64,000 nucleotides of DNA from Eledone cirrhosa (lineage: Eukaryota). Location: the NCBI GenBank assembly GCA_964016885.1, contig OZ024743.1, positions 36,890,001 to 36,954,000 on the forward strand, written 5' to 3'. A model generated the notes under the pieces. That model was not told the origin of the DNA, searched no databases, and was given only the letters and a program-made list of their open reading frames with translations. Below are positions 59,612 through 63,090 of this stretch, one piece after another; position 1 is the stretch's first letter; each line of letters opens with the position of its first letter. The position numbers and the translations under genes were made by a program.

Positions 59612-60772
59612 TCAAACAGACCCTGAGGAATAATTTGAATTCTCAAAAGCATCGTAAGATCTTGCATATGTTTTTTCAGAAACAGATGTTTTCAATGTGC
59701 CAGGAAGAGAAAAAGGTCTTTCAAAGAAAAAGTCTGAATCGGCTTTGGTACTGTAGTGATCCTGTGAAGTCTTGTTGACGTCGTATCTTAGCGTGGCCAT
59801 CATGTGTATCTTAGGAATAAAGATAAGGGATAAATTGACAGTGGTGAATATTAGAATACCGATTGCGACAGCCGGTTGCATAAATTTGCTTGGTTGCAGG
59901 AAGTAGACCAGTTGCCAAGCCAACCATACTACAATACTCAGAAGACAAGCTAAGAGTATATATTTGGCTTCACGCAGGTTTCTCTTCTCTTTGTAAAGAG
60001 AGATTGAGTAGAGCAAGATGAGAAGCTGTAGAAACATCGGGTAACAGATGTAGTAAATAAATTCAAACTTATCAAATAAACAACCGTAAATGGAAACTCC
60101 ATAGTAAGTAACCATCTTAGCTAGAGCGGATTTCATTAGAAGCCATCGCTGTAGACCGACTGCAACTTGAATGCCTGTTATAAAAACAATTGTCAACAAT
60201 TGATTGACAATTGATAAAGTTCCACCGAGCCCTATTAATCTATAATCGTGAAGATTCATTAGTTTCACAAGTATTATACTAAGAGTAAAGGCATAACCAA
60301 AAGCGGGTGCGAAATAACGCATCTCGCACACAAGTTCATTGGGGGTAAAAACAAAAGGTAGTATGGTGGAGTATTGTACAACAAGTGCAAATAACAGGAT
60401 TAACGCTAAAGTGCAGTAACGTCGCCCACAACCGGTACCTAAACAATATTTATAAAGGAGATACGTAAAGATGCCAATCGCTGTTAAAACGCCAGCAGCC
60501 GCCACTGTTATTACTACAGTCGCCCAAATAGTTCCCCGAAACTGACCAGTCGACTTTACAAATCCTTCATCTTTGAGTGTTAGTGCCATTGTAGACTTCA
60601 TAGATGGAGTTGGTTTTGGAGGCATATTCACACACGAACACGATTTCTCTTCACAACTGGCTTCCATCATTAATCTGACATCATCTTTATCCAGATTATC
60701 ACCGACGTTGTCATATAGTAATATGGTAGCTTTAGAAACTTCGACAAAGTTATCCTCTTTCCATTCAGCAAC
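59612..60772 (-). CDS. Class C GPCR, terminal coding exon: VFT tail, short Cys linker, 7TM_3 domain and C-tail
   Basis: Acceptor ttgtcttcattag|GTTGCTGAATGG (VAEW...) is in frame with the 352-aa ORF and ends at TGA 59612-59614. Seven hydrophobic segments with class C signatures: VCEMRY..AFGY...SIILVKL (TM3), KRNLREAKYI (ICL3), VVWLAW (TM6), IFIPKI (TM7). Confidence 0.93.
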   Translation of the reverse strand, partial: VAEWKEDNFVEVSKATILLYDNVGDNLDKDDVRLMMEASCEEKSCSCVNMPPKPTPSMKSTMALTLKDEGFVKSTGQFRGTIWATVVITVAAAGVLTAIGIFTYLLYKYCLGTGCGRRYCTLALILLFALVVQYSTILPFVFTPNELVCEMRYFAPAFGYAFTLSIILVKLMNLHDYRLIGLGGTLSIVNQLLTIVFITGIQVAVGLQRWLLMKSALAKMVTYYGVSIYGCLFDKFEFIYYICYPMFLQLLILLYSISLYKEKRNLREAKYILLACLLSIVVWLAWQLVYFLQPSKFMQPAVAIGILIFTTVNLSLIFIPKIHMMATLRYDVNKTSQDHYSTKADSDFFFERPFSLPGTLKTSVSEKTYARSYDAFENSNYSSGSV

Positions 60773-61536
60773 CTAATGAAGACAAAAGAAAACAATGGGA
60801 AAAAATCAATATGCTAGATTTACAAAAATTAAGAACAAATCATAAAGTACTAATAACAGTACAGAAATGTATTTTTAAATAACGAAATTTTCCTTACTAA
60901 GACATTTATATAATTTATACAGTTTAACATTGTTTCTTTGGTCCATTTTTACGAGTTCTACCCCTCTCGGTAAGCGAATGAAGTATGAGATTTCGTCGAT
61001 CGATTTCTAAATATCAGACTAATCAATACAACCAATATTACATTATTTTAATATTTTATCGTTGTTGTTGTTTAGCACTAAATAAACTCTGGTCGAGCAA
61101 ACTTGGTGCTGACAATGCATATGATAATTTAGTAGATGAAGGTGCAGTTTCTTATGTGTTTGGCAACCAATCATACCTCGACGACTAATCATATTTCGAT
61201 ATATTTGTGAATATTTCTTTTCGTATAATGTCATACCGCTTCCCTTCTTTAGTTGTTAGAGTAATTGGCAAAACAAAAAGTAATGATTCCAGAAATCACA
61301 GTTTTGAGAACAATATACTGTGTGTATTGAGTACATCTTACTTCACTCATAAGCATGAACATTCACCAAATCTCTCTCTCTCTCTCTCTCTCTCTCTCTA
61401 TATATATATATATATATATATATATATATATGTGTGTGTGTGTGTGTGTGTGTGTGTGTGTATATATATATATATATATATATATATATATATATATATA
61501 TATACGCATCAATAAAATCAAATAAATTCCACTGAC

Positions 61537-63090
61537 CTTTATAACTTTAGTATTGTTTTCGTCGAACATTCGACTATATATAGCTATACCAGTGACAATC
61601 TCTCGAGTCTGATCAAACTGGAAGGAGTCACTTTCAAACTTAACTTGAACATTCTTGAAAGAATCAAGGGTTAGAATATTATTGGAATTAAACTCTTTAC
61701 ACAAGCCCCCTTTGCCTCCACATTTTTCCAAATATTCTTTTTGCAGGGCAAATAATATAGCGTCGGTGGCACGTATAACATCTGTAGTTACGGGGGATAT
61801 TTTCTGGTCTGCAGGTATTTCTTTACTTAAACATTTGTTTCTTAACTGACTGCTGTTCTTCATCTGACAAGACAAACGCTTTTGCTGTTGCTGCGAGAAC
61901 CAAACATTGTTGGTTCCTTTCAGCGATGAATTATAATATTTTTCGAATCCTGTATACACCTGCGTGTCACGACCGAGGGTGAATGAACCAATGGGAAGAG
62001 ATGTATTAATGGGGTGTTTTTCCCAACCATCATGCGATTGGTCAAAAATCCATATAACTGACAAGTTGCTTTTCTTAATTAACAAATTCAATTTGGTGAA
62101 ATGATTTTCAGAAATAAAGGCGATGATTAATTTTGTTGTATTGTCATTGGCAAGGAGCTTAAGGGCATATAGGAAAGGGTCATCTGAATTAGTTTCGTTG
62201 TTTGTGCTGAGGTCATCATAGTTAACCCCGGGAATATCTTTTAACCAGATGACATGTAAAATACATAATTTGGTACTCCTGGTCATATCAGTGAATAACT
62301 GAATGAGTCTACGATTTTCTAGTGTGTCAGAGGCTACTACAAAAACATGATTCCAACGATACGCACTTACGAGACCAATTATCGCGGAAAAGCGAGCATT
62401 TGCAGAGAGTGTTAACGACAAAGAGGTTTCGGGCAAATCGAAATCTCGTTCGGCTCTACGAGTACCGCCATTTTTCTCTATTGCCAACACAGGTTTTTTA
62501 AAATCTGCAATCGAATCCAATAAACTGTCGAGAACATCCGAAGATCCGACTGCCATATAAGCTGGAGTTAATTTAGGGCTTGCTCCCCAACTTGAGTAAT
62601 AATCCTCAGTTTTCTGGATTTTTTCAGACTTTTCCTGTTTATTATTTTGTCGAAGGGAATATGCACAGGATTCAAAATTTCCTAAAATAGTTAAGGCCTT
62701 TTGTTTAGAAGAACACGTGTCTAGGATTAAAAGACCAAGATTTACATCTTTCAAAAGTTCATTGTGTCGTTGCTTTGCTGTTTTGACAGCATAAATCATA
62801 GCCTCTATCAATTGGTCAATGTCGCTGTCGATGGTGACTTCTCCACATTCAAATGTTGTTTGTCCTGCCTTCCGTACAGGCATTATTGCCGTTACTAGAA
62901 TGTCACCAGGTACGTAAATGAAGTCATTATTAATATCTATTGTTTTACCCGGTGAACTATCACATTGGTAACACTGAGGGCACCATCCATTGCATTCAGA
63001 AACTGGAGCCTTGACATCTTCTAAAGCGTTGTAACCTCGCACAGACTTCTTGAACATAGAAATACTTTTGTTTATAGTGTATTGGCCAAC
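61537..63090 (-). CDS. Class C GPCR, penultimate coding exon (518 codons, phase 0/0): tail of an upstream VFT, Cys linker, then a complete VFT (ANF-receptor-like) domain
   Basis: Acceptor tttatctag|GTTGGCCAA (VGQY...) at 63090 and donor AAG|gtcagt at 61537; the exon is 1554 nt and open. Class C VFT motifs: IYVPGDILVTAIMPVR, IEAMIYAV, LLKDVNLGLLILDTCS, WNHVFVVASD, LCI, VIRATDAILFAL, CGGKGGLC, FQFD. Confidence 0.9.

Follow-up and report, generated by a model that had tools for sequence, protein, structure and literature searches.

An octopod class C receptor with three Venus flytraps in series and its probable relation to the BOSS group

Three ectodomain layouts are described for class C G-protein-coupled receptors in PMC12716839: a Venus flytrap (VFT) with a cysteine-rich domain (CRD), a VFT alone, and Cache with EGF. 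In the same text GABA-B receptors have a VFT without NCD3G, a feature shared by the octopod receptor presented here. PMC11743138 describes BOSS as binding a protein, Sevenless, and predicts for it a pocketless VFT, no CRD, and a bond between a linker Cys and lobe 2. BOSS is also reported there and in a 2026 review (PMC13232746) as a nutrient-responsive GPCR for the nutritional state of the haemolymph, possibly for glucose. The review limits Boss as a Sevenless ligand to Diptera and credits its N-terminus with no identified homologue outside Diptera (PMC13232746), and PMC1192796 has BOSS clustering with the RAIGs.

The locus examined here encodes an intact, spliced class C GPCR. Two exons in the window (the whole 64,000-nucleotide stretch of Eledone cirrhosa DNA that was analysed) form the 3' end of a gene with seven coding exons, whose 1777-residue product consists of a signal peptide, three VFTs and a 7TM domain, with NCD3G absent. 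Coding exon 6 (61537..63090, minus strand; phase 0-0, 518 codons, acceptor AG/GTT, donor AAG/gtcagt) opens with VGQY and holds the last strand of VFT2, a four-cysteine mini-linker and the whole of VFT3. The last coding exon (59612..60772, minus strand; 386 codons plus stop) opens with VAEW and carries the last strand of VFT3, a three-cysteine mini-linker, the 7TM domain, the cytoplasmic tail and the stop codon. Between them lies a phase-0 GT-AG intron of 764 nt (60773..61536, minus strand; joint 60770-61535, cut +2) at the clade-typical VFT-end position. The 3' part of intron 5 (phase 0, 3221 nt) occupies 63091..64000 on the minus strand, and the upstream coding exons lie outside the window on G000:C4, exon 5 with VFT2 at 36957655-36956312 and the exons for the signal peptide and VFT1 at 36960086-36959343, 36960596-36960436, 36962686-36962591 and 37010153-37009881.

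The preliminary description of the two window exons had proposed a class C GPCR with tandem VFTs, and the three modules plus 7tm_3 found here bear this out. Both exon starts, VGQY and VAEW, do sit at phase-0 introns with a cysteine cluster after each, and where at least one more VFT was expected upstream there are two, in five coding exons 3.2-57 kb beyond the last window exon. A full-length mRNA carrying nothing but a signal peptide or non-VFT sequence upstream of VGQY, and a significant NCD3G match before TM1, had been named beforehand as findings against the proposal; neither was found.

The gene model agrees with transcript contigs. The 764-nt intron is precisely removed in those of run X11 (0 mismatches) and X1, and contigs of runs X5 and X6 also join at its site. 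On the 5638-nt X11 contig the seven-exon model places the start of exon 6 at 2868 and that of exon 7 at 4422; both are observed there, exon 6 being covered at positions 2868-4421. Exons 1, 6 and 7 occur together at the predicted offsets on this single contig and likewise on a relative's contig, X1. Coding exon 1 is frameshifted in the assembly; the missing base is present in 4/4 runs, and the frameshift is an assembly error. One copy of this three-VFT orthologue was found in the genome, with no expansion, along with two paralogues that share its linker and intron, one of them a five-VFT paralogue on contig C22.

All VFTs of these three genes end at a phase-0 intron, at 9/9 junctions (three-VFT gene 3/3, five-VFT paralogue 5/5, third paralogue 1/1), in agreement with the symmetric phase-0 exon module suggested earlier. 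VFT3, the membrane-proximal flytrap (61537..62922, minus strand), retains its structural Cys and lacks the amino-acid pocket motif. It is the complete VFT to which the exon 6 cysteine cluster was thought to lead: Pfam ANF_receptor matches at E 4.9e-10, the AF2 model is a whole two-lobed VFT (pLDDT 64, pTM 0.70), and the best Foldseek match of that model is the mGluR5 ligand-binding domain (E 9e-20). Pfam marks three ANF stretches in 3/3 cephalopod-type orthologues, an HMM built without this family's modules detects all three in the octopod protein (33 bits for a partial VFT1, then 104 and 155), and the Atlas assigns VFT1 by itself to ANF_receptor clusters (0.93).

The ectodomain is about 1470 residues long. 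VFT1, VFT2 and VFT3 each form their own orthologous group across molluscs; cephalopods, gastropods and most bivalves have retained all three, and VFT2 is missing from two bivalve orthologues. Identity beyond octopods is 20-25% for VFT3 versus 17-22% for the other modules, a small margin, and the invariant residues of the modules are mainly Cys, Gly, Pro and Trp. AF2 modelling of the two-VFT Mya orthologue P0012, a record short of about 80 residues of its last VFT, returned seven helices and a pTM of 0.36, so that the model lends no support to a fixed arrangement of the modules. Prediction of a complex of two VFT3 copies, made with the alignment not used, scored 0.00 and speaks neither for nor against a dimer. 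Foldseek and VIA found no tandem-VFT structure, their matches being class C receptors only.

The four-cysteine mini-linker between VFT2 and VFT3 (62962..62994, minus strand) begins at residue 33 of exon 6 with the spacing C-x3-C-x2-C-x2-C and lines up with S-x-C-x3-C, the start of the cysteine-rich domain in mGluRs; its first three Cys are invariant in 10/10 aligned sequences. The terminal three-cysteine mini-linker (60632..60655, minus strand), which precedes the stalk to TM1, reads C-x4-C-x-C from residue 40 of exon 7 onward, and three Cys are present in 27/27 true terminal linkers scored. Within the mGluR CRD, it is the first two cysteines that align with the mini-linker cluster. Searches for NCD3G returned none for the two exons (Pfam, E<=1) and none for 4/4 longer relatives (E<=10), and the domain is on record in 4/4 fish V2R/CaSR-like matches. 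The 110 residues preceding TM1 contain three Cys here as against nine in V2R/CaSR-like controls, and the nine-cysteine domain is missing, as first supposed. The terminal cluster was also said to lead straight to TM1, which is indeed the next domain, but a Pro/Ser/Thr-rich linker of about 35 residues lies between. All four-cysteine internal linkers (20/20) are accompanied by a Cys after helix B in the next VFT, one oyster junction has lost both, and a Cys also falls within the scored window at 13 of 50 three-cysteine junctions, 11 of them at fifth modules and 2 in nematodes, with five internal junctions outside the scoring. This four-Cys/helix-B pattern represents one lineage with one co-loss and not 20 independent events.

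The class C 7TM domain (59810..60529, minus strand; residues 82-321 of the last exon) matches Pfam 7tm_3 at E 1.3e-23 and 84.4 bits against a cut-off of 33.5. In alignment with mGluRs of its own genome it retains the TM3 and ECL2 Cys, the TM3 Lys, the TM6 Glu and the TM7 F-x-P-K, all of which have roles in mGluR signalling; the second basic residue found in mGluR TM3 is not conserved. Between octopods the 7TM is 96-97% identical. The cytoplasmic tail (59615..59809, minus strand) has the conserved motif D-F-x-F-E-R-P-[FY]-S-L-P-G and is 98-100% identical to that of two other octopods and 32-51% to that of six other molluscs.

We placed this domain in a 7TM tree of 55 rows (IQ-TREE, LG+G4), of which 53 were picked by hand from 183 and two are GABA-B rows, partial sequences of the same genome used as outgroup; vertebrate GPRC5 and GPR158 are absent. 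Its rows were drawn from the best 150 of 454 matches to the octopod 7TM, so that the sampling favours relatives of that domain. An earlier FastTree version had 20 near-duplicate rows of the 183 removed. The mollusc three-VFT receptors, the BOSS group, the nematode receptors and a second arthropod group form a clade with support 100/99, and the whole wider clade is separate from mGluR, CaSR-like and (partial) GABA-B sequences, again with 100/99. In AU tests, joining the 7TM to the mGluRs is rejected at p 3.5e-8, and joining it to the other multi-VFT receptors at p 3.9e-5. Judged by sequence, the closest named relative of the octopod 7TM is BOSS, a label that derives from the NCBI name of a Lycorma protein and from automatic Atlas names, Drosophila BOSS being outside the set. 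The PDB search gave no BOSS chain at E<=1e-20, and fly BOSS could therefore not anchor the trees. The Atlas ranking puts an arthropod 1368-aa cluster first and the 'bride of sevenless' cluster second; since the second group of arthropod paralogues lies at much the same distance, the relation of the octopod receptor to BOSS is one-to-many.

Trees of the flytraps were built separately, including one of 86 modules (FastTree). VFT1 joins nematode VFT1 and the single arthropod VFTs with support 97 (64 rows), and these together with other N-terminal modules with 99 (LG+C20 PMSF, 39 rows, quick search); VFT2, VFT3 and nematode VFT2 group with 98 in both VFT trees. For the 39-row PMSF tree and the VFT AU tests, 25 of the 64 modules were removed. 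The AU tests reject BOSS-group VFTs with VFT3 (p 0.011) and arthropod VFTs with VFT2/3 (p 0.038), and monophyly of the octopod protein's own three modules is not rejected (p 0.12). The BOSS-group VFTs thus appear to group with VFT1 and not VFT3, a grouping that long-branch attraction may have inflated, because the VFT branches are long, at 1.1-1.8 changes per column.

Likeness to BOSS extends beyond this placement. The octopod 7TM lies in the same well-supported clade as that of the NCBI-named Lycorma BOSS, and on alignment both proteins appear to combine degenerate VFT sequence without a CRD, a Cys-bearing linker and a lobe-2 Cys; in the BOSS-group alignment 13/13 rows have the lobe-2 Cys and, ahead of TM1, a C-x2-C pair. 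They differ in that BOSS has one VFT and the octopod receptor three, and Sevenless binding is reported only for flies. The nematode two-VFT orphans (Trichinella, Steinernema) belong to the same 7TM clade and have one VFT1-type and one VFT2/3-type module, three-cysteine linkers and no pocket motif; they differ from the octopod receptor in having two VFTs and an internal linker with three Cys instead of four. The mGluRs, with CaSR, T1R and V2R, share the VFT fold, the structural and lobe-2 Cys, the first CRD cysteines and the class C 7TM motifs, whereas a single VFT, a nine-cysteine CRD and an intact glutamate pocket set mGluRs apart. GABA-B receptors have one VFT and fall in a separate 7TM clade (on partial rows), and we know of none with a Cys mini-linker. 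An amphioxus protein named GPRC5B-like, the sole GPRC5-type row in the tree, falls within the wider clade. Compared by 7TM structure alone, GPRC5D ties with mGlu2 as the best match (Z 27.3 vs 26.9; rmsd 2.3 vs 2.1; 232 vs 234 residues aligned), and by sequence profile mGluR3 (4e-46) is ahead of GPRC5D (3e-30). GPRC5A-D (RAIG) have almost no ectodomain, in contrast to the roughly 1470 residues here.

Tandem-VFT relatives are named from amphioxus, acorn worm, crinoid, scorpion and nematodes, with two VFTs in nematodes, three in amphioxus and acorn worm, four in scorpion and five in molluscs and a nemertean. The split of VFT1 from VFT2/3 is common to molluscs and nematodes, and the suggestion of a lophotrochozoan class finds no support. 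Databases already list proteins of this type under 'mGluR-like' or 'uncharacterized', and the former name is misleading. The nematode two-VFT receptors presumably include C. elegans F35H10.10, and we take Drosophila CG32447 to belong among the relatives; papers naming either gave no architecture. The openly available full-text literature yielded no description of tandem-VFT class C receptors. These sequences may already be among those in the class C trees, in figures or data files, of PMC6408891 and of bioRxiv 2020.05.07.078311; the latter labels a Boss group. Fish 'two-VFT' matches (P0025-P0028) were discarded as relatives: they have two nine-cysteine domains and resemble fused models of tandem genes.

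The amino-acid pocket motif (S-Y-A-S-T region plus R-T-x-P) occurs in 0/49 modules of this receptor's family, 0/10 arthropod and 0/4 nematode modules; among controls the full motif is found in 8/11 fourth modules of the five-VFT family, 2/2 mGluRs and 0/2 fish V2R/CaSR-like receptors. The model first put forward, a multi-ligand or chemosensory receptor with a small ligand of its own for each VFT, is consistent with three full VFT-length modules that each form an orthologous group across molluscs. We nevertheless consider it improbable: absence of the motif from 49/49 modules leaves 'multi-ligand' without support, two bivalve orthologues do without VFT2, and a single orthologue copy whose 7TM barely varies between octopods is unlike the expanded chemoreceptor families. 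Because the motif search missed both fish controls, its result leaves room for another small ligand. Such a ligand is the premise of a nutrient sensor, for a sugar for example, in which one VFT would have a re-purposed cleft and the others would be spacers. The reports on haemolymph nutrition and BOSS, possibly involving glucose (PMC13232746 and PMC11743138), are in its favour, as are the completeness and slightly better conservation of VFT3. One module of the five-VFT family retains the motif and the others mostly lack it, so a design with one active module exists. Yet none of the modules has invariant polar residues at the aligned pocket positions, and this reading seems to us unlikely, if a serious contender.

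A ligand-blind partner subunit comparable to GABA-B2 would account for degenerate pockets alongside a very conserved 7TM and tail. It would pair with another class C receptor, such as the five-VFT paralogue on C22, and supply G-protein coupling or trafficking. The two paralogues in this genome, alike in linker and intron, fit this; orthologues of one retain the motif in module 4, and GPRC5 receptors are said to dimerize with other GPCRs (PMC13430022). The retention of three modules in cephalopods, gastropods and most bivalves is, however, left unexplained, and we regard such a subunit as distinctly unlikely. Almost no probability attaches to an artefact of annotation or assembly, by which tandem genes were fused, or to a pseudogene. 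Fused V2R-like models do occur in fish records, and the assembly does have its frameshift, but the X11 contig, the relative's X1 contig and the base recovered in 4/4 runs rule this out; furthermore, no 7TM exon was found between the VFT modules, and the architecture recurs across molluscs.

We propose that in molluscs this receptor corresponds, by phylogeny, to the BOSS group of arthropods and the two-flytrap receptors of nematodes, and that it binds a large cell-surface or secreted protein partner, not an amino acid, a reading to which we give an even chance. Of the three linker Cys, two would pair with each other and, as in mGluRs, the third would bond to the conserved lobe-2 Cys in the VFT before it. 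In internal linkers the fourth Cys would bond to a Cys that follows helix B in the next VFT, and the modules would thereby form a stapled stalk. Binding of the partner, or pulling on the stalk, would shift VFT3 and then, through the terminal staple, the 7TM, whose conserved form would signal to a G protein. The clade-specific phase-0 intron would have made the last strand, the linker and the next VFT into a module open to in-frame duplication or deletion. The protostome ancestor of the sub-clade would have had at least VFT1 and one VFT2/3-type module; the latter would have been duplicated in molluscs and lost in arthropods, leaving BOSS with a VFT1-type domain. More tentatively, and with doubt prevailing, these receptors could be an overlooked fourth bilaterian branch of class C, with one to five disulfide-stapled flytraps arising through in-frame duplication of the phase-0 exon module. 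Fly BOSS and vertebrate GPRC5 would then be cut-down descendants, and the octopod receptor would show the longer, ancestral form. It would sense contact or tension and also serve as the membrane-bound ligand of a cell-surface protein, for instance a ROS1/Sevenless-type kinase.

Two to five flytraps conserved in series constitute a fourth class C ectodomain layout. They raise the structural question of how, with several modules in the path and no CRD, an ectodomain is coupled to the 7TM. Other arthropods too have a recognizable BOSS-group VFT, which appears to group with VFT1 of the mollusc and nematode receptors, and the three-VFT receptors thereby supply relatives for BOSS. With relatives of this VFT beyond Diptera, the origin of the BOSS-Sevenless pair and that of the ectodomain-less GPRC5 receptors become testable.

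We identify at this locus an octopod class C GPCR whose tandem Venus flytrap (VFT) arrangement is real. Both reading frames lie on the minus strand where the preliminary description had placed them, each preceded by an AG acceptor in phase 0: exon 6 at 63090-61537 (518 codons, starting VGQY) and exon 7 at 60772-59612 (386 codons plus stop, starting VAEW). Pfam assigns ANF_receptor to the former product (E 4.9e-10) and 7tm_3 to the latter (E 1.3e-23), with no match to the nine-cysteine domain NCD3G at E<=1 in either. The window corresponds to positions 36890001-36954000 of contig C4 in assembly G000, and across the 200 kb upstream of it taken for mapping, P0003, an orthologue from Octopus vulgaris (1783 aa; database name 'metabotropic glutamate receptor-like'), maps to five further coding exons. 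Exons 1-7 contribute 273(+1), 96, 161, 744, 1344, 1554 and 1161 coding nt, with intron phases 1, 1, 0, 0, 0, 0 and a product of 1777 aa; exons 2-7 are 85% identical to P0003, and a search of them for internal stops found none. One base is missing from the assembled signal-peptide exon (L013:6096, about 37010096 on contig C4 of assembly G000), causing a frameshift that we attribute to assembly error because all four runs covering the site (4/4) carry the extra base; automated gene calling on this assembly could yield a truncated model or a pseudogene label. A single 5638-nt contig from sequencing run X11 covers exons 1, 6 and 7 with 0 mismatches, and since exons 6 and 7 start at 2868 and 4422, as exon lengths predict, exons 2-5 should lie within it as well; a relative's contig in run X1 has the same layout. 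Elsewhere, much of the window consists of long microsatellite tracts, and open frames of 235-345 aa at 1808-2512 (-), 4980-5816 (+), 9665-10372 (+) and 47481-48515 (-) read, by eye, like non-LTR retrotransposon fragments.

P0003 and two further orthologues, P0004 and P0005, each contain three ANF stretches by Pfam and give no NCD3G match at E<=10. All three VFTs of the window's protein were found by an HMM trained without any module of the mollusc three-VFT family, VFT1 by itself matches ANF_receptor clusters in the Atlas database of protein clusters, and an AF2 model of the exon 6 product (10-sequence alignment, pLDDT 64, pTM 0.70) resembles the flytraps of mGluRs and CaSR, its top match being the mGluR5 ligand-binding domain (E 9e-20). 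The earlier idea of a symmetric phase-0 exon module is supported: a phase-0 intron closes each VFT immediately ahead of its last strand, and likewise falls at the VFT end in 5/5 junctions of a five-VFT paralogue and 1/1 of a third paralogue. The frame continues across this position at L003/L028, L029 and L034, which are three mGluR/CaSR-like loci in the same genome. The five-VFT paralogue, a second multi-VFT class C gene (G000:C22:14396800-14432200, minus strand; L046-L050), matches Argonauta P0023 at 46-85% identity, depending on the exon. The third (G000:C217:7710-17100, plus strand; L065-L066) looks like records with a single VFT, for example P0160 and P0144, with one VFT exon detected and a three-Cys linker; its contig is just 27 kb, and further modules upstream are possible. 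L003/L028 (G000:C27:4967013-4969370), an mGluR-like gene with a single intronless 909-aa open frame, is possibly a retrocopy of an intron-bearing mGluR on C14.

A HMMER search with the last exon against 1.84 billion representatives returned 454 matches; we inspected the 150 best and looked up 30 by name. Among the matches examined, orthologues with three VFTs come from cephalopods, abalone, limpet, scallops, oyster, mussel and a freshwater mussel. Two-VFT bivalve records (P0012/P0013 of Mya, in which the tree identifies VFT2 as the absent module, and P0037 of Mercenaria) fit in-frame loss of a symmetric exon, or its skipping in gene models. Among related receptors the VFT count is three in Branchiostoma and Saccoglossus, two or more in Antedon, two in both Trichinella and Steinernema, and five in molluscs as well as in Lineus. 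The four-VFT scorpion protein P0169 (Centruroides, 2316 aa) groups by its 7TM with the five-VFT family (100/99), extending that family beyond lophotrochozoans. Named relatives with one VFT or none include 'bride of sevenless' (BOSS; Lycorma) and 'GPRC5B-like' (Branchiostoma belcheri). Seemingly two-VFT V2R/CaSR-like fish proteins (P0025-P0028), each with two nine-Cys domains, appear to be tandem genes fused into one model, a trap for searches based on domain counts.

The window's receptor is not an mGluR. Concordant 7TM trees (FastTree, 163 rows; IQ-TREE, 55 rows), with rows picked by similarity to the query and no fly BOSS, vertebrate GPRC5 or GPR158 among them, recover the mollusc three-VFT clade (100/98) and unite it with the BOSS group, the two-VFT receptors of nematodes and another arthropod group (100/99); mGluR, CaSR-like and GABA-B rows fall outside a wider clade around this group (100/99). 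AU tests reject union of the three-VFT clade with mGluRs (p 3.5e-8) or with other multi-VFT receptors (p 3.9e-5). In module trees with long branches, VFTs cluster according to position: VFT1 groups with nematode VFT1 and arthropod single VFTs, and VFT2 and VFT3 with nematode VFT2. HMM scores point 9/13 arthropod VFTs to VFT1 as the trees do, the other four being higher on VFT3 or unscored. Joining the BOSS-group VFT to VFT3 is rejected (AU p 0.011); monophyly of the protein's own three VFTs is compatible with the test (p 0.12).

In a joint alignment, the Cys cluster of the linkers lines up with the first two Cys of the cysteine-rich domain (CRD) of mGluRs, and the lobe-2 Cys, which in mGluRs is bonded to the CRD, is retained in nearly all modules. 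Terminal linkers have three Cys in 27/27 cases. All 20 four-Cys internal linkers scored (20/20), every case from a single mollusc lineage, sit before a module that carries a Cys following helix B; three-Cys internal linkers precede a module without it in 37/50, and one oyster junction has lost both the fourth linker Cys and the helix-B Cys. Within that lineage, the paired pattern suggests that a disulfide joins the linker to the module that follows. For BOSS, a structural study predicts a disulfide between linker and lobe 2 (PMC11743138).

We propose, at roughly even confidence, a BOSS-lineage orphan receptor in which pocket-less, disulfide-stapled flytraps would form a long stalk binding a predicted large partner, whose movement the final linker would pass on to a 7TM competent to signal. 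BOSS provides the functional precedent: it is a predicted pocketless VFT without a CRD that binds Sevenless (PMC11743138). The canonical amino-acid pocket motif occurs in 0/49 modules of the mollusc three-VFT family, 0/10 arthropod and 0/4 nematode modules, 8/11 fourth modules of the five-VFT family and 2/2 own-genome mGluRs, in a scan that also missed 2/2 fish controls. A small-molecule nutrient sensor is a credible minority reading; BOSS is also reported as a nutrient-responsive GPCR (PMC13232746).

Octopod 7TMs are 96-97% identical and VFTs 72-83%, falling to 36-42% and about 20% towards gastropods and bivalves, and the aligned 7TM retains the TM3 and ECL2 Cys, TM3 Lys, TM6 Glu and TM7 F-x-P-K. 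That the receptor is a ligand-blind heterodimer subunit is rather unlikely. The multi-ligand chemoreceptor envisaged in the preliminary description appears improbable, and an artefact scarcely credible. An AF2 prediction for an orthologue with two VFTs (pTM 0.36) does not single out one arrangement of the modules.

PMC12716839 gives three class C layouts, tandem VFTs not among them, and the consulted sections of PMC6408891, PMC6307864, PMC2246102, PMC11682238, PMC11650548, PMC8687355 and bioRxiv preprints do not mention such receptors; our full-text search found no description of class C receptors with tandem VFTs, and trees in supplements may hold these sequences. BOSS clusters with RAIG/GPRC5 in PMC1192796, and according to PMC13232746 homologues of the Boss N-terminus are not known beyond Diptera. 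From sequence alignments, and from trees with long branches, query-biased rows and fly BOSS absent, we argue to the contrary that such homologues probably exist beyond Diptera. Within the clade, the most promising receptor for ligand screening is the five-VFT paralogue, because module 4 retains the pocket motif in most of its orthologues.
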